Virus record (IMG/VR): IMGVR_UViG_3300040786_000030
Location: 88,281 to 152,280 of that record
DNA length: 64,000 nt
Origin: a virus
Strand: one strand, 5' to 3'
Position numbers and translations under genes: made by a program
The notes under the pieces: generated by a model
Seen by the model: the letters and a program-made list of their open reading frames with translations, nothing else
Told to the model about the DNA's origin: nothing
Database searches by the model: none
Shown: in pieces, positions 1 to 52,620 of the stretch
How positions within the stretch are numbered: position 1 is the first letter of the stretch
Layout: every line of letters starts with the position of its first letter

Positions 1-2150
1 ATTAAGAACTCAAGGTGTTGAATTAAAAGCAGCGCTTAAAACCGTAAACACAACAAATTTAGCTATGTCTAAAATTGCATCTTCAGCGGTTAAAGGTTTG
101 GCCCAATTACCAGGTATTATACAAAACTCATTTGGTAAACTTAAAGGTTATGGGTTATTTGAAATGGATAAGGCAATTAAAATGTCAGCATTACAAATGG
201 GTCTTTTAGGTAAAGAAGGTGATGAATTTAATAAGACAATGATTAGGGTCGCTGGTGATACTAACAATATTGGTGTTACTGTTGAGAAATTAAGCGCTTT
301 ACAAGCTGATTTTAATTATAATCTAGGTAGAACTCTTATGCTTAGTGATAAGAACCTTAAAGCTATGGCAGCGATGTCAGTGGCTACAGGTTTAAGTTCT
401 GAAGATGTAGTCAAATGGCTTCTGATATGGATGAACAAGGTAAGTCAGTATCAGAAACCAGTAAGTATTTAGAGGACAGTATGAATAGTAGTCACGCAAT
501 GGGTCTTAATGCTACTAAAGTTATTAAGAATATTCAATCAAATATGAAATTACTTAATAAAACTAATTTTAAAGATGGTGTTAAAGGTTTAGAAGCTATG
601 GGTAAATTAGCAACTAAATTAGGTGTTAAAATGGATTTTGCTGCTGGTATGAGTGATAAACTATGGGATATCGAAGGTGCTGTAGATATGTCTGCTCAAT
701 TGCAAGTTATGGGCGGTGCTTGCTAAACTAGCTGACCCATTCCATTTAATGTATATGGCTCGTAATGATATGAAAGGTTTAACTGAAGAAATAGCAAATG
801 CTTCAAGCATCTATGCATTTAGGTAAAGATGGTGGAATAGAAATGACTTCAATGGAAATGTCTAGACTTAAAATTGTAGCTAAAGAGGCTAATTTGGAAT
901 ATGATGACTTAGTTAAATCTGGAAAAGAACTCTTTAAAATGAATAAAGTAAAACAACAGATTGGTTTTCAAGTTGACCCAGAAACTAAAGAATTTATAGC
1001 AAATACAGCCCAATTAAATAAAAAAGTAAAGCAGAAATTGATATTAAAGGTTATACTAAATTAATGTCACAATTAACATCTGCAGATGTTAATTATTTAA
1101 AAACTAAAACATTAGAAAAGCAAGTTTAGAAGAACGAGCTAAAGCATCGCAAAATTTTGACGATAAGGTTACAAATTTTATTAATATGGTCAAAACATAT
1201 ATGTTACCAATTATTGATGGAATTAATGATGTGTTAAGTCCAATCGTAGATAAATTTATGAAAGGTGATTTTAAAGGTGAAATACGTAAAATTGGTGAAA
1301 GTATTGGTAACTCTATAATAGCTGTAAAACCAGTTTTGACGCTATTGGTAATTTTATAAACATGTTAGGACCAGGTAAAACTTTAGGGTTATTATTTGGT
1401 GGTAAAATACTATTTGATGTGGCTTTATGGGCTTTGAATGGTGTTAGTTTAGGTCAAGCATTTTAGCAACAACTAAAAGTTTTGAAATGGAATGCCTGGT
1501 GCGTCAAGTTCATGGACACCAGGTCAATCTGGAAACGGTAAAGGTTGGTCTATGGGTAAAAGAGTTGGTGCTGGTGTTGGTCTAGGCGTTGCTGGTATGG
1601 GAGCTGATTATTTAACAGATAAATACACTGAAGAAGGTAGTAACGCTAATATTGGTGGTAAAGCACTGTCTGGTGCTTTATCTGGCGCTGCTATGGGTGC
1701 AATGTTAGGTCCTTGGGGTTAGCTGGTGGTGCATTAATTGGTGGATTATATGGTGGTATAACAGCAGCAATGAAAGAACCAAAAAATAAAATAAATGGAG
1801 TTAATAACCCAACAATAAAACAACCAATTAATGATGGAATATCTAAAAGTGGTTATAGTAGAGGTATTTTAGCTGGTGGGACTATTACACCAATTAGTAA
1901 TAAAGATGATTTAATGTCTTTTAAATCTAAAGGTCTTATTGATAATGCTTTAAATAAAAATGCAAATGTTCCAAGTACAATGAAAATTGAGTTTGGTGAG
2001 ATTAAATTTGGTGGTGAATTAAAATTAACAACACCAGGTTCTCCTGGTCAAGGTATAGATTTACTTAAAACCAAGATTTCATTAGAAACATGACTACGTT
2101 GATACATTCTGAAACACAAAACAAATTAATGGTGGAAAAATAAAGGTTAA
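1..2150 (+). CDS. Tape-measure-like protein, 5' truncated and frameshifted
   Basis: ORF fragments 65-2093 join across homopolymer indels into one Ala/Gly/Met/Lys-rich helical protein with a glycine-zipper segment (GAGVGLGVAGMG...GALSGAAMGAMLGPWG). It lies directly upstream of baseplate genes. Confidence 0.7.
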
Positions 2151-2456: not shown

Positions 2457-5400
2457 ATGGCAATATTTTATAATACTAATAATCCAACACCATCTTCATT
2501 AAATACTATCAATAGTGTTTCAATGAATATTAGAGATTTTCTATTAACTAAAACATATCTTCAACATATCCTCAAATTGGCACAAGTATAAATGGTAGTC
2601 CTCAAATTGGTGAACCAGTATTAGATACACAATCAAATTTATTAAATACTTACCCACATCAACAACTAACAGGTGATATTCAAGCAATTCAAAACCTCGA
2701 TGTTTTAGGTAGTGTATTGAATGGTCAAGGAATTGGGTTAGGTAGTAAAGGTATTGTACCAAACTTCGATATTAGGGGTTCTTTAGCTGGAAGAATATTA
2801 GGTGCTACAGGTCTTTTAAGCGATACTAAGATAGGAACTATAGCTGGACAACAATTAGCTTTAGCTTTAGCTAATAATGCCACATTTAACGTAGAACAGA
2901 GTTTATTTGGTAAATTAAACGCTGCGGATAATTTATTAAGTTTAGTAAAGAATGGTACACTAGCTGGTTTTAGACCAGATTATAAAATAACAGTACCATC
3001 AAGCACTATTGGTGTTGTTGGTGAGTTCACTAGTAGAATGTTAGGGTTTACAGTACCTAGAAGTTATTTAAATGATTCTGGTTCTATATTTCAAAATGAA
3101 AATAAAGGTGTTGGTAATATAGAACGAGCTAATAGTATGTTACTAAACACTGGTAAGGGTCAAGTTTTATCATTATTAAAAATATAAAAAAGTAACATAG
3201 GTCCAATAAAATCAGTATTTAGAAGTGGATACGCACCAGGTTTTACAAATAATAAAGGTGTTAGACAAATTAGTGAAGAAGAAAGTAATGTTTATGCTTT
3301 TGATAAATTAGGGCAAAATATTAATCTATTAAGTAATTCTATTGATGGTATAATACCAGATTTAATGCATAATAGTGAAGATAATGTCAGTAATTATGGT
3401 TTTACTAGTCCAGAAATGAATGGTACTGGCCCTTATGGTATATTGGATATGATAATAGAAAAGTTAGTGATATCGGTTTTACTTGGACGACAAATAATGG
3501 TGATGCTGTAAATACAACAACTGATAATGATGAAATTATTGGTGATAAAAAATCGTTATTGGTAAAACACAACAATTATTCAATAGTAAAGGTTTGAAAA
3601 GTATGATATCAGTAAAAGGTGATATGAAAGCTGTATCTAATCAATTACAAACAACAAATGGTGGTGGTTTATCTAAAGGTAGTGCGGTATTAAGTGGTTC
3701 AATGTATAAAAAGATGGTACATATGTTGGTAATAATTCATCAGCTAATGATACATACTGTAGAAGTTGGACAACATTAGATAGATACGATACTGTTAATA
3801 AATTAATTAGAAATAATGGTTTAGATGAAAATTCTGTATATGGTAAGAAAAATATACCATATAGGTTTCAAACTGAGGGTAGTGTATTAGATACTAATGG
3901 ATTCCCTAAAATAGCACCATATAGAGATGACCAACCAGAAGACCCTAAAAAATTTATGTTTTCACTTGAAAATTTAGCATGGTCTGATAATATTGCTGAT
4001 TTACCTCAAAGTGAAATTGGTTCTGGTGATATCGCTAATGATAAAAAAAGGTAGGATTATGTGGTTTCCACCATACGACATCACGTTTAGTGAAAATAAT
4101 TCAGTAAATTGGGAATCTACAAATTTTATAGGTAGAGGTGAACCAATATATACGTATAATAATACTGAAAGGTCAGGTACATTAGGTTTTAAGGTAATTG
4201 TAGACCATCCTAGCAACGTAAATGCTTTTAGAGGTGATAAGGGTCCAAGTGATAATTATGTTGCCTCATACTTCGCTGGTTGTGTTGAACCAAATAAATT
4301 TTGGAGAAATAAATTAACAATTAATCAAACTAATCAATTAATTAATGAAAATACTAATACACCACAATCAGCTGTAATTACAAAGAAAAAGCTCCAGATA
4401 TAAAAATTATTTTTTATTTCCCAAATGATAATGCTATAATACCAAATAATTATGAAAATGGTTTAAGTGGACCGTTAATTACTGATTTAATAGATTACAC
4501 TAATAACCCACGTGGAGATGGATATGGTATTGATTTATATAAATCAGATGGTTTTACATCTGGTATTCATCAAAAAGTGGGTTGGTATGATAATACTAAT
4601 TTTGGTTTAAACGCTTCTAGTCAATATTCTACTGGTGTTGTTTTTAATGGTGTCACATATATGGGTTTAAGGGATGTAAGTAGTTTAATGGTGGCTTTAA
4701 ATACGTATATTAATGATGAATGTCCAAGTTGTGTTGTTAATATATCTGGATATGCTAGTGAGCAAGGTGTTGAGAGTTCAAATAATCGATTAATTAAAAG
4801 TAGAGGTGAATATATTACAAATATACTTAAAGGTGGATTATTTAAAAAACTAACAGATTCTGATAAAAATAAAAGGTTTAAAATTGTTGATGGTGGTATT
4901 ATAAAATCTGCTGGTTGTAAAGTTGGAGTTGAAGAAGATATTGACCAAAAGGCTTGTAAAGAGGCTAGAAGGGTTGAAGTAACATTTAAATTTGATGCAA
5001 ATATAGCTGCAGAATCTATAGTTAAACCAAATATTAAAATTAAAACTGAAAATAAAGTGTTAGTCAAAAATAATTAACGAGTATTATAATGAAACATTAT
5101 ATTTTGATAGGTTAAAAGAAAGTGACCCTTTGTTTTTGATTCATTTAGGGAGAAAATTAAATATTTTCACCCAGCATTTCATTCAACTACACCAGAGGGT
5201 TTAAATTCAAGACTTAACTTTTTTATTACAATGTACGAGACAAGGACCAACATCAGAATTACAAGGGCCAAATAATTTAGCATTTGGTAGAGCACCTGTA
5301 TGTATTCTTAGAATTGGTGATTTTATAATACTAAAATTGTTATTGATAATATTGGAATTACGTATGAACCTTTAGTTTGGGATTTAAACCCAGAAGGTAT

Positions 5401-15638: not shown

Positions 15639-16735
15639 ATGTCTCAAAACCAGAAAAAAAACCAATAACAAAACCATTTGATAATTCAGATTTTAAAAAA
15701 GTCTAGGTTTAGGTAAGCAAGTAATAAAAGAAAAGAAATAACTTGGATACCGTTTAAAAGCTTTCACGATGCTGTTGGTGTACCTGGTGTGGCTAGAGGT
15801 TATACAACACAATTTAGAGGTTTTCAGATGTTGGAAAATCTACTGGTATCTACGAATCGTTAGCTGGTAATCAAAATTAGGTGATTATTCTATTATAATT
15901 GACACTGAGGGTAGTTTTAATTGGGAGCACGCTAAATTAGTTGGTTTTAATTATCAAGAAATATTTGATGAAGAAACTGGTGAGATTATAGATTATGATG
16001 GTGACGATTTTATGTATTTTGGTGGTAGAGACTTATTAAATTTATATCAAAATTTTGATTATAAAGATGCTAAAATGAAAACAACACCATTAAGATATGT
16101 TCCAGTTGTTGAAGATATTGCACGTTTAATTAATGAGATTTTAGATAAACAAGAAAAGGTGAATTCCCACATAATATTACATTTTATGGGATTCAATAGG
16201 TTCTATTGGTTGTTTTCAAGGTGCAGTATCTAATACTAATAATAATCAATGGACAGCTGGTGCGTTAAAAGAGAATTTGAATCAATATTAAATTTCAGAA
16301 TACCAGATTCTAGAAGATTATCATCAAAGTATACCAACACATTTGTTGCTGTACAAAAAATATGGTTAAGACCAAATGCTGTTGGACAACCAACAATTAT
16401 GCATAATGGTGGTGAAGGGTTTAAATATGGTGTTAGAATGATTTTTCACATGGGTGGTAAATCAACATCATCAACTAAAAAATTAGAAGCTGTAAATGCT
16501 GGTAGAAGCTATAATTTTGGTGTCACAACTGAAATACAATGTGTTAAAATCACGTTAATGGTATTGAACTAATGGGGACTATTTGTTCAACACCACATGG
16601 TTTTCTTAATCCATCAGAAAAAATGCATACGTTTCAGCAAATAAGGGTTTTATCAATGCTAAACTAGGTACTAATTTCTCTGATTTTGAAGTTGTCGAGG
16701 AAGAATTAGACACTGATGCTTACTCAAAAGATTAA
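15639..16735 (+). CDS. recA: RecA/UvsX-like recombinase (frameshifted)
   Basis: GVARGYTTQFRGFSDVGKST Walker A, then IIDTEG, WDSIGS and GGEGFKY. Confidence 0.8.
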
Positions 16736-16772
16736 AAGTAGTAAAAAAAGTATTAACCATTAAAGTTTTAAA

Positions 16773-17805
16773 ATGGGTACAAAACCACCAAAAGAGGTGA
16801 AAAAATAGAAAAAAACAAAACACATTAGTAGATGGAAATGCCCTATTTAAAACGGGCTTTTCGGTGCTAAGAATGTCTACAACAAAGATGGTCAACACAT
16901 AGGTGGACTATATCAATTTTTAACAATACTAAGAAAAATGTTAGTTGATGATTTATATCACAGAGTTTATGTATTCTGGGATGGTAATCTAAGCGGTAAA
17001 CTTAGATATGATTTTATAAACCATATAAAAGTGACCGTGGTAAAGACTTTATAAATGGAACTCACCCAATAGATGCTTCCGAACTATCTCAACGTAAAAT
17101 ACTTTGGGAATATTAACGAAATGTATATCAGACAACTAAAACATGAAATTATCGAAGGTGATGATTTTATAGCTTACTACTGTCTAACAAAAAAAGAAAA
17201 CGAAAAGATTACCATATGTACTAATGATACTGACATGGCCCAATTAATAAATGAAGATGTAAAAATTTATTACCTACATTTAAAGAATTATGTTGATAAT
17301 GTCAATTATTCTTCGTACTTTAGCCATCATCAGAGCAATGCTCTTTTAGTTAAATCAATAATAGGTGACACTGCTGATTCTATAAAAGGTATAAAGGGTG
17401 TGGGTGAATCAACACTACTAACTAACTTTCCAGAATTAAAAGAAAAGAGTTGACTATTGATGAGATAATAAAACAAGCTAAGGTTATACAAGAAAATAGA
17501 AAACAAGGTAAGAAACCACCTCTTAAAGCGTTGACAAATATCATTGAGTCTATAACGGATGGTGTACAAGGAAAAGATATATATGCAATTAATAAAAAAT
17601 TGATAAATCTTAAAGAACCTTTGATGACTAAAGATGGTATAAGGCAATTAGAAGATTTAATAGAAGGTACGTTAGATTCTTCAGGTAGAGAGTTAAAAAC
17701 GTCATGGCTATGATGAAACGTGATGGTATAGATAAAGAAATTGGTGATTACAGATACCCTGATTATCTGGTACCATTTAAACAATTAGTAACAAGAGAAA
17801 AATAG
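16773..17805 (+). CDS. 5'-3' exonuclease / flap endonuclease (Pol I N-terminal or T4 RNase H-like)
   Basis: LVDGNA, VFWDG, YKPYKSDR, EGDDFIA, TNDTDMAQL and GDTADSIKGIKGVG motifs. Confidence 0.85.
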
Positions 17806-17837
17806 AACAATTAAAAACAATTAAAAACAAAAACAAA

Positions 17838-18354
17838 ATGGTACTAAACACTAAAAAAATGGAAGAACAAGTATTTGACGAACCAAGATTCGAATTTTTA
17901 TTATATGTAAATAATAATTATTTGTCAAAGAGGTTTTAATATCCGTGATTATGATGAAAAATTCACAGATGTTGTTGAGTCTAATGAGGTTAGACAATTT
18001 CAGAGTTTGATGAAATTAAAACATTAATCGATTCACTTACTGGTATGAATAATGGTGAGTTTGGGGAGTTAGGTATGATACCTAACCATTTAAAACAAAA
18101 TCTATTACCTATCTTTGGGATAATTATAATCCATTCCAATATCAAGGTGTTGATTCTTATAAATCACCAAATAAAAGGTGATACATTCCAATTTGAGATA
18201 AAAGCTGATAATTACATTTTAGCAAAAGTGAATTTTCTAACGAATTTTTTACATTAAACCCAAAATAAACGTTGATATTAGAGAAATTATACCAGAAATC
18301 ATCAAAGAGATTAGGTATTATTTATCTTCAAAATTATTCAAAGTGTTGGTTTAA
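17838..18354 (+). CDS. Hypothetical protein (frameshifted)
   Basis: Coding-like sequence between the exonuclease and helicase (RFEFLLYVN...VDIREIIPEII). Confidence 0.5.
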
Positions 18355-18404
18355 CCAATACTTTTGTATATTATAATAACAATGTTTTAAAATAGTAGAC
18401 TATA

Positions 18405-19816
18405 ATGGCGAATATAGATAAGAATAATTTAGGTTACTTAGGGGCAGATTACCAATTACGATTAGTTGCTCAAATACTTACTGATAGAAAATTTGGTGAA
18501 TTAATAATCGACATATTGAACCTAATTACTTTCAAGATGAATATGTTAGAATAGTTGTGGCGGCAATTAAAAACGCAAAACAAGTATATGATGTGTTACC
18601 AGATATGGGTAGTCTTGAAGCTAGATTATTAGATGAAATTTCAGGTGATGTTCAAAGAAGATATGCAATTTCTCAACTTAGAAAAATACAAGAAGCAAGT
18701 TTAAATGACACTATTTGGGTTCAAGACACTGCTATGCGTTTTTGTAAACAACAAGAACTAATAAAATCAGTACAAGAGATTAATAGAATCATTAGTAAGG
18801 GTGATAATGAAACTTATGAAGAATGTGCTATAATATTAAGAAAAGCGTTAGACCATGGTGATTCTAAGGATGATGGTATGGATATCTTTCACGATATTGA
18901 ACATGTATTAGAGGATGATTTTAGAAAACCAATTAGAACTGGTATTCATGGTTTAGATGATATTATGGATGGTGGTTTAGCTAGGGTGAGTTAGCGGTTG
19001 TATTAGCACCGTTTGGTGTTGGTAAAACAACCATGTTAACTAAAATTGCTAATACAGCAATGACTGATGGGTTGAAAGTTTTACAAATTTTCTTTGAAGA
19101 TAACCCGAAAGTTATTCAAAGAAAACATTTAGCTTGTTGGTCTAAGATTAGTTTAAATGAATTGTCAACACACAGAGAAGATATTATGGATATTGTAACT
19201 GAAATGACAGCTAAAAAGGTGTGTTAAAACTTAAGAAATTTTCTAGTGATGGTACAACAATACCAGTTATTAGACAATATATTAGAAAATTAACAGCGCA
19301 AGGGTTTAAACCTGATATTTTAGTGTTAGATTATATTGACTGTGTTGAACCATCTAGAACATTTAGTGATGTAAATGTAGGTGAAGGTAGTGTGATGAGA
19401 CAATTTGAAACTTTATTACATGAATTAGATATAGCTGGATGGACAGCTGTACAAGGTAATAGAAGCTCTATTTCAGCTTCAGTTGTTGAGGCTAACAAAT
19501 GGGTGGTTCGATTAAAAAGGGCAAATTGGGCATTTTGTTGTATCTATTGCTAAAACATTAGACCAAAAGAAAATGGCACCGCTACTATGGCGATACTTAA
19601 ATCTCGTTTCGGTAAGGATGGGGTTGTATTTGAAGATATAGTTTTCAATAATGCAACGATTCAAATTGATATGGGTGAAAAAGATAGAGGTCATACACGT
19701 GTAGAGTATAAAGTCGTTGAGACACAAGAAAAAAGCGAAAGCTAATAGAATAATGGATGCTGCTAAACAAAGAAAAAAGTCTTTTAGGTGGTGTTTCAGA
19801 TGAAGAAAACAATTAA
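18405..19816 (+). CDS. dnaB: Replicative DNA helicase, DnaB/gp41 family (frameshifted)
   Basis: RTGIHGLDDIMDGGL, LAPFGVGKTT Walker A, LVLDYID, WTAVQGNR and ILKSRFG. Confidence 0.9.
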
Positions 19817-49738: not shown

Positions 49739-50517
49739 ATGAGTAAAGCAAAACTATGGGTTGGTCCAGTTTATTTAGAACCAATAGCACATAAATATAT
49801 ACATAGAGAAACGAATAAGAAATATTCATCTGTTACTACAACTCTTTCTTCAATCGAACCACATTTTGACGTGGAAGGTGTATCAGCTGCTATCGTAAAA
49901 CAACAGGATAGTGCAAAACAAGAAAGATATATTGACTAACACAAATGCAGATAATAGATTATTGGCAAATGCTTAACGATGAGGCAAATGTTTATGGTAC
50001 CATGGTACATGATATAGTAGAAAGATATTTATTGGCTGATAAGTGGTATTTCCCACCTGATACTGAAGAAGGAAAATTTGAACAAAAGTAATTGATGGGT
50101 ATAATAGCCTTGAAATTGATGAAGGTATAGCTGTTTGGCCAGAACGTATACCATTTGCTGAGCAATATGAATTAGCTGGTATGTCAGATTTAATTATCGA
50201 TATTGATGATGTATATTTTGATGTTTTGGACCATAAACCAATAGAGTATTTAATTTTATAACCCATTTGGTAATGAAACTTTATATAAACCGTTTGACCA
50301 TTTGCAAGCATGTCAATGGTCTATTTATACATTACAATTAAGTGTTTATGCTTATATGTATGAATTAGAATTCCTAAACGTAAATGTCGTCAAATAGTGG
50401 TATTATATTGGGATAAAACTAAAGATACTTTTGAGAAGATACATATTATGTTCCTCAAGCACGAAGCAAAAAAAATTAATTGAATTACATCATTATAACC
50501 TTATGAAAAATGGTTAA
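49739..50517 (+). CDS. PD-(D/E)XK (RecB/Cas4-like) exonuclease (frameshifted)
   Basis: YSSVTT, GTMVH, AGMSDL, LDHKT and YTLQLSVYA motifs. Confidence 0.8.
50451..50511 (+). repeat. Direct repeat copy 1 (recoded exonuclease C-terminus)
   Basis: TTC CTC AAG CAC, then GAAGCA...ATGAAAAAT identical to copy 2 except for one extra A in the homopolymer. Confidence 0.95.
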
Positions 50518-51165
50518 AAAAATCTTTTGATATCTCGATTAAAATAAGAACATAATGGTTGGAGATTACTGAAGTGATTTAATTTCAGTAACTCTTCTTC
50601 TGTTATTGCTGATGAACTAGGTATTATGTGGTCAATATCCCAACCATATTCTGGTGTACCGTTGTATAAACCATAATTATCCCATATCATCCACGGTTAA
50701 AACCTTGATTCAAGGTATTTTCTAAATTCTTTAATACTGCAACTTAATATTTTATTTGTTGTGTTATTTTTATCAAAACCATTTCGTTTAATAGAGTTTC
50801 TTATTAAACATCTAATATATTTGATAATTTAAAAAGAAAATCGGTTTTACTACGTTCTTTAATATATTCGTTATAGTAATTAGGTCTTTTTTTCTAACTA
50901 TCTTTTTTAGTTTCTTTAACTTTATTTGGATTATTTTTAAACCACTCTTTTAGAATTTTGTTAGTTTCTAAATTATTTTTAACCCACTCTTTTTACGAAT
51001 AATTTCTTTTTCTGATTTAGCTAAATCTTTTAAAATAATTTGGGTTGTTCTTAACCCAATTTGATTGTAATTTTTTATTTTTTCTTTATTTTTTTCTCTG
51101 TATTCCTTATTATATAAACGTTTGGCTTCTTTACGTTCTTCTTCGGTTAAATATTTTTTATTCAT
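50514..51165 (-). CDS. HNH endonuclease with basic helical N-terminus (frameshifted)
   Basis: Reverse strand reads ...CSIKEFRKYLESRF.PWMIWDNYG...WDIDHIIP...LNHFSNLQPLCSYFN, a free-standing HNH type common in large DNA viruses. Confidence 0.85.
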
Positions 51166-51920
51166 TTGTATCTTTATTTATTAATGTTCTTAAGTATTCA
51201 GATAATGATAAATCTAAAATTAATAATTTTTTCGTTAAATTAATATATAATTCATCATTTACTCTAAAACTTAACAAATGGTCTTTATTTAATTTTATTT
51301 CTGGTGAGTCCTCCAAATCCATCTCAATTTTAAATGTTTCAGAATCCACAATGAGTTTATATTCTTCATATTTTTAATGTTTTCTTCATCTATACTCCAG
51401 TGTAAATTATTTTAATAAAATTATTTTCATTATCGTTAAATAAATTATTAAAAATGAACTCCCTTTTGTTAGAAGATGCTATGATTAATTTAGAGTTAAA
51501 TTGACTACTTAATACTGGTATGGTATATGATATTATATCATCTAAACGATTAATAAACATGCATTATCGATAATGACATGTGTAATTGCAACCTCTTAAA
51601 CCATCTAAAGTTGAAGCTATTTTATTAAATTACCATTTTCTAATTGTAATGTAGAAACAGTATCTTTTATTTTTTTAAATCTGATATTCTACCATCAAGT
51701 CTAATTTTATTTAATAGATGTTTAGCTGAGGCTAATTTTTCTGTGAATAAAATAATTGTGTTATTACTAGTATTATTTTGTTCTAATAAAGTTTCTATGA
51801 TAAATTCTGCTAAAACAGTTGAAACACCCATCTGTCTAGAGTGTTTTATAAGTGAAAATTTATTAGTATGTAAAGATTCTAATAGTGTTGTTTGATAATT
51901 TTAATTTCATTGTAATACAT
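51158..51920 (-). CDS. Degenerate terminase-large-subunit ATPase domain fused to a ribbon-helix-helix-like C-terminus (frameshifted)
   Basis: Reverse strand reads YQ..LL, KHSRQMGVST, LRG, VIIDNA, LIIASS, LHW...F.IE, then LLSFRVNDELY..L...LSLSEYLRTLI. Confidence 0.65.
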
Positions 51921-51940
51921 TTTAAAAATTTGTTATACAA

Positions 51941-51989
51941 ATAAATATGTGTAAAATCTTGTAAAGACCAAAATTATTTGGTATATTTG
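51941..51989. promoter_or_regulatory. Divergent promoters: minus-strand ATATTTAT into the cassette, plus-strand Bacteroidota promoter toward clpP
   Basis: ATAAATAT at 51941-51948 is ATATTTAT on the minus strand, 20 nt before ATG 51920. TTG(51959)...TATATTTG(51982-51989) lies on the plus strand. Confidence 0.6.
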
Positions 51990-52000
51990 TATTTCGATAG

Positions 52001-52066
52001 TTTTTAAAACATGAAGCAAAAAAATTAATTGAATTACATCATTATAACCTTATGAAAAATAAATAA
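52001..52066 (+). repeat. Direct repeat copy 2 (displaced original exonuclease 3' end)
   Basis: TTT TTA AAA CAT GAA GCA...AAT AAA TAA, immediately followed by the clpP ATG. Confidence 0.95.
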
Positions 52067-52620
52067 ATGGATATAGATTTTAAATTAGAAGATAGAAATA
52101 TTTTTCTATCGGAACAAATAACTCAAGAGTCGGTTAAGTCTGTAATCGAAAAATAATTTTAATAAATGAATCAGATAAAGAATTAACTAAAAAAAGCTAA
52201 AAGATTTGGGTTTAAATATAAAAGTAGTCCAATTGTAATCTACATTGACTCATATGGTGGAAGTGTTTACCAATGTCTTGGGTTAATATCGGTAATGATG
52301 AATTCTAAAACTAAAATACATACAATTTGTTGGTGTAGCTATGAGTGCTGGGTTTATGATATTAATTTCTGGACATAAAAGATTTTCATATAAACATTCA
52401 ACACTATTGTATCATCAAGCTAGTAGTTTTAGTAGTGGTGAACTTAAAAAGATAGAGGAAGATGTTGAAGAAATGAAGATTACAAACACTATTAGAAATA
52501 ATAGTGTTAAGTAGAACAAATATAACTAAAGCTAGATTAACTAGAGTCTATGTTGAGAAAATAGATTGGTTTATTAGTGCGGATGAAGGTTAGAGTATAA
52601 AATAATTAATAAAATTTTAG
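52067..52620 (+). CDS. clpP: ClpP-like serine protease (frameshifted)
   Basis: DRNIFL, IYIDSYGGSV, GVAMSAG (catalytic Ser), LLYHQAS (His) and DWFISADE. Confidence 0.85.

Follow-up and report, generated by a model that had tools for sequence, protein, structure and literature searches.

A short homologue of the T4 terminase ATPase domain, with a putative ribbon-helix-helix tail, in a predicted homing-type cassette of a T4-like phage

Why would a T4-like phage encode a stand-alone ATPase domain of the packaging-motor type next to an endonuclease gene, among genes of replication and recombination? The question is raised by two adjoining minus-strand genes in a 64,000-nucleotide stretch of DNA (the window), which is G000:C1:88281-152280 of a 193,180-bp IMG/VR virus record (28.6% G+C, CheckV value 87%). 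The pair is flanked by genes for a primase, a PD-(D/E)XK exonuclease and homologues of gp47 and gp46. Its first gene encodes a protein resembling the ATPase domain of the large terminase subunit (TerL), with a C-terminal tail of the ribbon-helix-helix (RHH) type, and its second gene encodes an HNH endonuclease. An earlier note, made from the letters of the window, had taken the first product for a probably inactive motor subunit that might bias or poison the packaging of competing genomes. We arrived at a different reading, to which we give a probability of roughly one half: the two genes would form a homing-type cassette, in which the first product would bind its own leader through the RHH domain and thereby limit both itself and the HNH nuclease, while the nuclease would provide the mobility; binding and cleavage are both predicted.

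One protein with the fold of a terminase ATPase domain

The sequence elements listed in the earlier note are all found in the minus-strand frames of 51910-51158, which jointly spell NYQTTLL (Q motif), KHSRQMGVST (Walker A), VIIDNA (Walker B), IIASS (motif III), the linker LHW and the RHH sequence LLSFRVNDELY...SLSEYLRTLI. At least eight frame changes are needed to read the window protein against P0001, an intact homologue that is 95% identical. Its start is likely the ATG at 51910 (MKL...), as in all intact homologues, and not 51920, where the feature had been placed to begin. The TAA stop at 51160-51158 lies within ATGAATAA, and the ATG of the HNH gene, at 51165-51163, precedes it by two codons, so the overlap of stop and start described earlier is present.

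Single-base indels occur throughout the record, and the longest open reading frame (ORF) in its entire 193 kb is 444 aa. The gp46 gene (in seven pieces) and the gp47, primase and exonuclease genes of the window are broken by indels in the same way as the TerL-like gene. A 1583-nt short-read contig of run X1, which spans 50482-52042, showed 0 substitutions and 26 indels in 1.56 kb relative to the window, and at two of the mapped frame-change points, 51370 and 51409, a T was inserted in 4/4 runs. In the codons of the TerL-like gene that remain in frame, comparison with the orthologue in locus L002 gave 0.20 nonsynonymous (dN) and 0.76 synonymous (dS) changes per site, a ratio of 0.26. Because of the short longest ORF, the equally broken conserved genes, the correction of the indels by the X1 contig and the four runs, and this ratio, the frame breaks are assembly errors and not decay. 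The single protein proposed behind the indels is thus real, with intact homologues of 250-254 aa, and annotations of this record that depend on ORFs will come out heavily fragmented.

With this we rejected the possibility, which the earlier note had named as a refuting outcome, that the locus holds two ORFs or a decaying terminase fragment carried along by a homing endonuclease. The many frameshifts of the window would be in keeping with a pseudogene, as would the frequent invasion of TerL genes in this group (the phage's own TerL carries a LAGLIDADG intein, and the TerL gene of L073 is split by an endonuclease gene). However, the frameshifts vanish in the short-read contig, the homologues have one intact ORF with dN/dS of 0.15-0.26, the motifs are invariant across 88 cluster representatives, and the structural model described below is of high confidence.

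The frameshifts also determine what profile searches return. A PF03237 search of the whole phage genome gave 0 matches although the real TerL is present, so that this search was defeated by the frameshifts. A Pfam scan of the separate ATPase pieces of the window returned 0 families, a search for related loci with the 77-aa piece found none, and the sole terminase match of the window's own pieces was PHROG 5989, 'terminase large subunit' (E 3.4e-4). A word-indexed search with the same 77-aa first piece recovered five intact homologues of 250-254 aa, all of which (5/5) passed Pfam Terminase_6N with 22.6-40.6 bits (cut-off 22) and also matched PHROGs 7579, 2 and 5989, each named terminase large subunit. 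Of 1.84 billion representatives searched with HMMER, 2269 reached E<=1e-3, among them 380 with E<=1e-10. First in this list come over 100 proteins of 240-330 aa whose match extends along the full profile, tail included; behind them stand true TerLs of 500-1000 aa, matched over positions 2-200 only.

We based the family profile and alignment on 88 full-length cluster representatives. The profile matched the gp17 structures of T4 and RB49 (3ezk, 2o0h, 3cpe) with E values from 1e-39 to 3e-38 over gp17 residues 141-350, which is the ATPase domain up to the hinge, and the match ended at residue 350. An AlphaFold2 (AF2) model computed with the 88-member alignment reached a predicted local distance difference test score (pLDDT) of 95 and a predicted template modelling score (pTM) of 0.85; a former run from 5 sequences (pLDDT 54.5) was discarded. 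The best Foldseek match of the model was gp17 (E 3e-11, query TM-score (TMq) 0.68-0.70; for its isolated ATPase domain a root-mean-square deviation of 3.4 A over 221 columns), followed by the TerL ATPase domains of P74-26, D6E, Sf6 and HK97. The window protein is a homologue of the T4 gp17 terminase ATPase domain, as proposed from its motifs, and represents one clade of a large unnamed family.

It is not a TerL. The window protein shares with the N-terminal ATPase domain of gp17 (Terminase_6N) the fold and a collinear Q motif, SRQxG P-loop, Walker B Asp, motif III and linker Trp, but it has neither the ~140-residue N-terminal extension nor the RNase H-like nuclease domain of gp17 and ends at residue 254 with the RHH tail. 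Furthermore, its P-loop has His at the Lys position, Asn is found in place of the catalytic Glu, and the gene lies outside the packaging module, with primase, exonuclease, gp47 and gp46 genes as neighbours. The protein therefore lacks four defining features of a TerL (P-loop Lys, catalytic Glu, nuclease domain, and placement in the packaging module as the sole TerL). A separate, intein-bearing real TerL is encoded in the same genome at G000:C1 ~16580-19500, 120 kb from the TerL-like gene. PHROG 7579 and ESM Atlas clusters label proteins of this kind 'terminase large subunit', which can mislead annotation and the prediction of packaging type.

The last ~45 residues form, in the AF2 model, an extended LLSFRV segment followed by helices 223-236 and 240-251. 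We compared ten tails from ten loci with RHH families: nine matched NikA-like, five CopG_antitoxin and two RHH_1, with a best E of 3.9e-5. The tail of the window itself scored 17.6 bits, below the curated RHH cut-off of 27, and the RHH-tail profile gave nothing significant against the PDB. The Arg in the RHH strand is invariant in 87/88 family members. An RHH domain in the place of the nuclease domain, as the earlier note had it, is well supported but not proven. With RHH proteins of the Arc/CopG/NikA type the family would share this putative 45-residue strand-helix-helix tail (matched below the threshold) and palindromes directly before the gene; it differs from them in that the RHH is fused behind a 190-residue ATPase-like domain, and its DNA binding is predicted.

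The state of the ATPase site varies within the family. The window protein and its close homologues read K-H-S-R-Q-M-G-V-S-T, with His where the phage's own TerL has its upstream Lys. The P-loop of that TerL is T-K-P-R-Q-A-G-V-S-T, without GK, while its Walker B (L-I-M-D-E) is kept, and many full-length TerLs of the HMMER search read K-[SA]-R-Q-x-G-x-S with D-E kept. The claim of a replaced Walker A Lys thus holds for the His at the upstream-Lys position, which is accompanied by D-N, whereas a missing GK(S/T) alone is no sign of decay. Across the 88 members the upstream-Lys position is K in 40 and H in 22, and the residue following the Walker B Asp is E in 41 and N in 34; the exchange of the catalytic Glu for Asn, also noticed earlier, appears in the window's clade as IIDN[AG]. 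K and E occur together in 38/88 members (~43%), and H, Q, S or A is mostly paired with N, meaning that the two positions co-vary. Motif III follows the same division into a form that keeps the catalytic residues and one that has lost them: it is S-T-P-N-G, as in gp17, in the former and S-S-N-K-K in the latter, to which the window belongs. As judged by these residues, ATP hydrolysis is probably absent in the window's clade. 'Inactive remnant' is nevertheless not a fair label for the lost-site form, since it is still under purifying selection (L146 versus L157, dN/dS 0.15; the ATPase-like part by itself gives 0.25 and the RHH 0.05). As a separate observation, the real TerL is interrupted just past Walker B by its intein, which carries the LAGLIDADG endonuclease domain, and this gene is frameshifted in the assembly too.

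No protein of this short TerL-like/RHH kind was present among 50,697 cultured-phage records queried with P0001 and P0161, where the matches were true TerL genes, in one place per listed record. In the full-text literature that was searched, with subscription journals outside its coverage, we found no description of a TerL-ATPase/RHH fusion or of the leader described below.

A 1.55-kb insertion at the 3' end of the exonuclease gene

By means of the exonuclease we obtained 62 related loci (L004-L065), which include filled (L004, L005) and empty (L006, L007) alleles of the insertion. In the two empty alleles the primase, the exonuclease, the next gene and gp47 are 98-100% identical in protein sequence to those of L004, both cassette genes are absent, and the exonuclease stop overlaps the start of the next gene. 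Comparison of filled and empty alleles at base level placed the insertion point ~57 nt ahead of the exonuclease stop. In the filled allele L004 the gene runs on into a 57-nt 3' end that is recoded, with many bases changed but the encoded protein sequence kept in sense; behind it come the cassette and then the original 3' end, which persists as a remnant identical to the empty allele L006. In a 4-way alignment the window shows the same duplication of the exonuclease 3' end as L004. Its insert is bounded by a direct repeat of ~68 nt (Table 1), the copies of which are 80-94% identical at a spacing of 1549-1550. Both copies encode the last ~22 exonuclease residues, and a tblastn search with exonuclease residues 240-259 matched 52001-52060. 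In the intact relative L004 the inner edge of the insert is formed by the recoded copy, which corresponds to 50450..50518 of the window.

Outside the insert, L004 and the empty allele are 99.7% identical over 3.5 kb on one side and 99.1% identical further out on the other, and only 95.1% identical over the 1825 nt of primase-exonuclease sequence adjoining the insert. This diverged flank of 1.8 kb is consistent with the pattern expected from co-conversion. The X1 contigs break exactly at the repeat, and the depth of the cassette contig is 35 versus 98-100 for the flanking contigs, a difference between contig depths that hints at, and is consistent with, a mixture of filled and empty alleles in one sample. 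Since near-identical phages lack the 1.55-kb insertion, we read the TerL-like/HNH pair together with the recoded exonuclease 3' end as a free-standing homing-type cassette, of which the cleavage activity is predicted. The earlier suggestion of a mobile cassette is in agreement with these alleles.

The insertion resembles the free-standing homing genes of T4-type phages (mob, seg; I-TevI, nrdA/mobE; PMC2988022) in its site between or within conserved genes, its presence or absence among close relatives, its diverged flank consistent with co-conversion and the putative translational coupling to an upstream ORF. Unlike in the T4 mob and seg cases, an upstream TerL-ATPase/RHH ORF with its own conserved leader travels here with the nuclease, and the insert brings a recoded 3' end for the host gene that it disrupts. 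The cassette thereby offers a clear case, found in nature, of a homing-type element that mends the interrupted gene with a recoded 3' end. A homing endonuclease cassette with a dedicated regulator is known; the architecture of the TerL-ATPase/RHH protein is new.

The HNH gene is frameshifted in the window as well, and nine listed indels in it were corrected by the X1 contig. Locus L002 holds the same pair as intact ORFs of 250 aa and 218-222 aa, with all neighbouring genes on the other strand. The window nuclease reads DIDHIIP...NLQPL...NRDIK, and D179, H180, N197, N201 and N210 are invariant in 52 aligned homologues. Its match to Pfam HNH (E 0.0024, 18.4 bits) lies below the cut-off of 21.4, and the full-length L002 protein had no Pfam match at E 0.01. 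PHROG 1035, 'endonuclease VII', was matched by the window piece (E 4.7e-6) and by the homologue in L111 (E 1.5e-25). The HNH profile gave 0 matches against the PDB, and PADLOC reported none for the L002 protein and a weak PbeC match alone for that of L062.

In runs X2-X4, which come from three other studies, the TerL-like gene is ~98% identical to that of the window (6-14 differing letters over 300-762 bases), and the DNA past its stop (window 51155 leftwards) is unlike the 5' part of the window HNH gene even at an 80% threshold. The 3' parts of the HNH gene adjoin the exonuclease on other contigs of X2 and X3. From these sequences the N-terminal part of the nuclease seems to be exchangeable. 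We also noticed that in X2-X4 the first 30 letters past the stop continue an ORF from the same ATG and contain C-x2-C; this ORF may possibly be an HNH gene with a different N-terminal module of zinc-finger type, as in L062, L111 and L182. In L062 a TerL-like/RHH gene encoding a 45%-identical protein overlaps a related HNH gene at a different site, before gp46, and no duplication was seen at this insertion.

Two further observations concern this region. A second two-gene insert, at L002:8277-9141 (L004 ~3044-3908), is absent from L006 and L007 and consists of a 79-aa ORF with an RHH-like pattern, with no significant family match, overlapping a GIY-YIG/NUMOD3/HTH endonuclease gene. It sits at the far end of the diverged segment, with 95% identity between the two inserts and at least 99% outside them. 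Within the 5' region of the window HNH gene a terminator-like hairpin (TTGGGTT..AACCCAA and a T run) was called on both strands at 51040-51059; it is not kept in L002, adjoins an indel site and is probably without meaning.

A conserved leader in front of the TerL-like gene

The leaders of the window, L002, L062 and L083 are more alike than the proteins encoded behind them. A TATTTAT box was found in 12/12 loci of both subfamilies (11 exact), followed 0-6 nt on, at -21 to -36, by (T)TGTAnnACA(A), for which the background of TGTAnnACA is 0.006 per 60 nt. A second palindrome, TGTAWTACA, lies ~20 nt further on, against the ATG, in 9/12 loci and in 7/7 further loci. Members at 25-45% protein identity retain this leader, whichever of 7 genomic positions they occupy and whatever gene is their partner. 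In the 193-kb genome the combined motif is unique; three further TGTAWTACA sites stand singly within coding sequence. In the palindromes the TGTA/ACA arms are invariant and the centre is variable, in parallel to the invariant Arg of the RHH strand. This arrangement is the signature of a predicted operator for a dimeric protein, between promoter and start codon, and RHH autoregulation would be the best reading of the leader. A reading of the two palindromes as an RNA hairpin appears less likely: the arms of each self-complementary site are invariant and its centre varies freely, as is sooner expected of a site for a dimeric protein.

When the viral collection was scanned for exact occurrences of TATTTATTTGTANNACAA, 119 loci came up. 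The next ORF was a family member in 9 of them (7 new, all 7 with the second palindrome) and an RHH-only protein of 49-51 aa in 2; the remaining 108 look like chance matches of an A+T-rich word. Because the leader also precedes RHH-only genes, the RHH, and not the ATPase-like body, appears to be the common denominator of the leader motif. At L182:2601-4378 we observed a TATTTATTTGTA..ACAA leader before a 49-aa Arc-like RHH gene (PHROG 582, E 3.8e-7), and behind this gene two HNH genes that belong to the family of the cassette nuclease (E 6e-33 and 1e-70). L182 is an RHH-only version, and at the same locus L069, L085 and L086 carry a full TerL-like/RHH gene.

The late-type promoter proposed earlier for the cassette was not recovered: TATAAATA is absent from the gene strand, where the conserved box is TATTTAT. 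Among 428 gene starts of the related loci L004-L065, TAnnTTTG (mostly TATATTTG) was found at -30..-11 in 93 (~9 expected) and TATTTATA at -40..-11 in 24 (~1.8 expected); the TATTTAT of the cassette belongs to the TATTTATA class. A sigma-70 scan was uninformative (13 sites versus 17.1 expected). TAnnTTTG is linked to Bacteroidota promoters, and the two words together suggest two promoter classes and a host of the Bacteroidota type. Sequences of Shine-Dalgarno type appear to be scarce at the gene starts of the same loci. Further upstream, TACAAATATAC is conserved in the window, L002, L062 and L083 and recurs 26 times at no more than 1 mismatch in the genome. With its complement GTATATTTGTA it may act as an outward promoter for the plus-strand genes, which transcription from upstream would no longer reach across the antisense insert.

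Table 1. Positions of the cassette genes, the repeat copies and the leader elements in the window
Feature	Position	Strand	Remarks
TerL-ATPase-like/RHH gene	51158..51910	-	~254 aa; at least 8 assembly frameshifts; ATPase-like ~residues 1-195, RHH ~212-251
HNH (His-Me finger) endonuclease gene	50517..51165	-	start overlaps upstream stop; frameshifted in assembly; read from frames and L002 orthologue
Current 3' end of PD-(D/E)XK exonuclease gene (49739-50515)	50450..50518	+	ends KHEAKKLIELHHYNLMKNG and stop; direct repeat, PDDEXK_1 match
Displaced exonuclease 3' end (remnant)	52000..52067	+	other edge of ~1549-nt insertion
TATTTAT box	51947-51941	-	predicted promoter core, upstream of palindrome P1
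Palindrome P1, TTGTATAACAA	51940-51930	-	predicted operator, after TATTTAT box
Palindrome P2, TGTATTACA	51911..51919	-	abuts ATG; predicted RHH operator half
TACAAATATAC	51981..51991	-	complement GTATATTTGTA fits TAnnTTTG box; faces plus-strand genes beyond 52067

Control of the cassette and competing readings

To place the pair within its family, we compared 17 loci with enough downstream sequence (the window included, L002 and L003 counted once, L084-L086 dropped because of a contig end or a break). A nuclease gene lies directly downstream in five: HNH in the window, L002, L062 and L111, and GIY-YIG/NUMOD3 in L077 (Pfam pass). The other 12 have no adjacent nuclease; these lone-gene loci include L083, where the TerL-like gene directly adjoins the same exonuclease gene, and two loci in synteny with the HNH-bearing L111, namely L114 and L117. 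Each subfamily has members with a nuclease and members that lack one. The TerL-like gene is antisense to both neighbours in 15/17 loci and occupies seven different genomic positions. With 12/17 genes standing alone, the TerL-like protein needs no nuclease in cis, and nucleases of two unrelated folds have become attached to it. The coupling to HNH emphasized earlier is thus found in the window cassette but is not a family trait.

In the homing-type reading the HNH nuclease would cut the exonuclease allele without cassette, and repair would spread the cassette, the diverged primase-exonuclease segment being the co-conversion tract. A dimer of the RHH domain would bind TTGTAnnACAA and TGTAWTACA between the TATTTAT box and the ATG and limit its own transcription; via the overlap within ATGAATAA, this repression would also limit translation of the nuclease. 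The ATPase-like domain in the window's clade would most likely serve as a non-hydrolysing DNA-gripping or oligomerising body for the RHH and not as a subunit of the packaging motor, which is the weakest step of the scheme. The proposed control matches the restraint of T4 homing endonucleases (PMC2988022): I-TevI acts on an operator that is similar to its target and so represses the promoter of its own gene, and overlap of stop and start, as translational coupling, was proposed to limit MobE. The cassette would offer a testable case of homing-nuclease regulation by a dedicated upstream protein.

Several points weigh against this reading. The status of the palindromes as operator is derived from their conservation and position. 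Conservation is stronger in the left part of the motif (TATTTATTTGTA) than in its right arm, so that the motif may be partly promoter and not a protein site. A simple repressor needs no ATPase-like body of 190 residues, and RHH-only genes with the same leader exist, so that most of the protein is left unexplained. As 12/17 loci have no nuclease, regulation of a nuclease is not the general role of the family. Lys and Glu together in ~43% (38/88) suggest an ATP-driven activity in those members, of which the model makes no use. The allele mixture in run X1, being drawn from contig depths, counts as a hint.

The packaging function favoured by the earlier note fits these data poorly. According to it, an inactive subunit would join or block the motor of competing or own genomes, or would tether packaging to its own DNA. 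The fold is indeed that of a ring-forming ATPase domain with its catalytic residues lost, the phage's own TerL is a distant relative, so that discrimination between motors is conceivable, and an RHH would give site-specific tethering. However, the gene lies far from terS, terL and the portal gene, with no link to any of them in the 17 loci; Lys and Glu are kept in 38/88 members, so that poisoning cannot be the function of the family; and the conserved site stands in the leader of the gene itself, where the site of a repressor is usually found. An RHH accompanied by such a site points to regulation, and we regard a packaging poison, drive or exclusion as highly improbable. HNH proteins of the HK97 gp74 type assist a complete TerL at cos sites and sit beside terS, terL and the portal gene. 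They offered the earlier note its analogy, in that an HNH protein is likewise paired with a terminase-related protein; in contrast to them, the present pair lies in a T4-like genome at a replication and recombination locus, and the partner has neither a nuclease domain nor the catalytic residues.

The five nuclease-bearing loci could alternatively mean that the pair is a split homing enzyme built like a miniature terminase, in which the TerL-like/RHH subunit would recognise the site and grip the DNA, and the HNH or GIY-YIG protein encoded downstream would cut in trans, in place of the RNase H-like domain. Overlap of stop and start, or a gap of 5 nt, joins the gene to a nuclease at four independent sites (window/L002, L062, L111 and L077), spanning both subfamilies and two nuclease folds. 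A true TerL holds the DNA with its ATPase domain so that the nuclease domain can cleave it (PMC5389665). The RHH tails match best to the NikA-like family, to which an accessory protein that recruits a relaxase belongs, and the empty target matches the leader motif at 10/10 plus 8/10 positions just beside the insertion point. Nevertheless, this likeness is not significant (30/500 shuffles reach it), and the 12 lone-gene loci speak against a division of labour. The HNH family is very large (4247 matches) compared with five TerL-like partners found in a word-limited search, and since the folds of HNH and GIY-YIG proteins are unrelated, the two are unlikely to offer the same interface to a partner protein. 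We consider such an enzyme possible, if unlikely. A broader version, which we hold to be clearly unlikely, would make the TerL-ATPase/RHH proteins an undescribed group of terminase-derived, site-specific DNA machines, docked by the RHH at the palindrome, repeatedly recruited by HNH and GIY-YIG nucleases as a targeting subunit in trans, and ATP-active in ~43% of members and locked elsewhere.

Terminase ATPase domains have been known as packaging motors and lately as targets of bacterial immune sensors, and effector-repressor fusions occur in anti-defence loci. The family could accordingly mimic terminase in order to counter immunity of the Avs/Upx type, with the ATPase-like body as decoy or blocker and the RHH as a built-in autorepressor, as in anti-defence operons. 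The gene is self-promoted, antisense to its neighbours in 15/17 loci, in the manner of morons, and without a nuclease in 12/17. According to PMC13601566, EcAvs2 and Upx recognise the TerL ATPase domain alone, and EcAvs2 picks up T4 Vs.8, a stand-alone TerL-ATPase-like protein. Yet Vs.8 activates Avs2 and does not block it. Vs.8 (NP_049732, 219 aa) is likewise a short phage ATPase core of TerL type encoded outside the packaging genes, but it keeps GKS and DE, has neither an RHH nor such a leader, and is remote from the family (hhalign probability 68%, E 4.7e-5 over 116 columns). PADLOC gave no match for the TerL-like proteins, though anti-defence genes are outside its coverage. Altogether we find a terminase mimic very unlikely; were it true that the ATPase-like body targets the nuclease or interferes with terminase-sensing immunity, the interest of the family would be considerably higher. 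As it stands, a widespread stand-alone copy of the ATPase domain, joined to a putative DNA-binding domain and a control site of its own, suggests that phages gave the packaging-motor domain a second use, in a family that exists in forms keeping and forms having lost the catalytic residues.

Other short TerL-like proteins were noticed in the course of the searches. At L073:3378-5840 a TerL gene is split: behind its ATPase part come an intein-like start and then a 299-aa ORF of its own. In the HMMER list, several 'short TerL' representatives of ~290-320 aa end in the same way, and are split genes outside the RHH family. At L082:3423-5965 a 253-aa TerL-ATPase-like protein without an RHH (RHSRQMGIST) is encoded directly upstream of a complete TerL of 579 aa and the portal, in the place usual for the small terminase.

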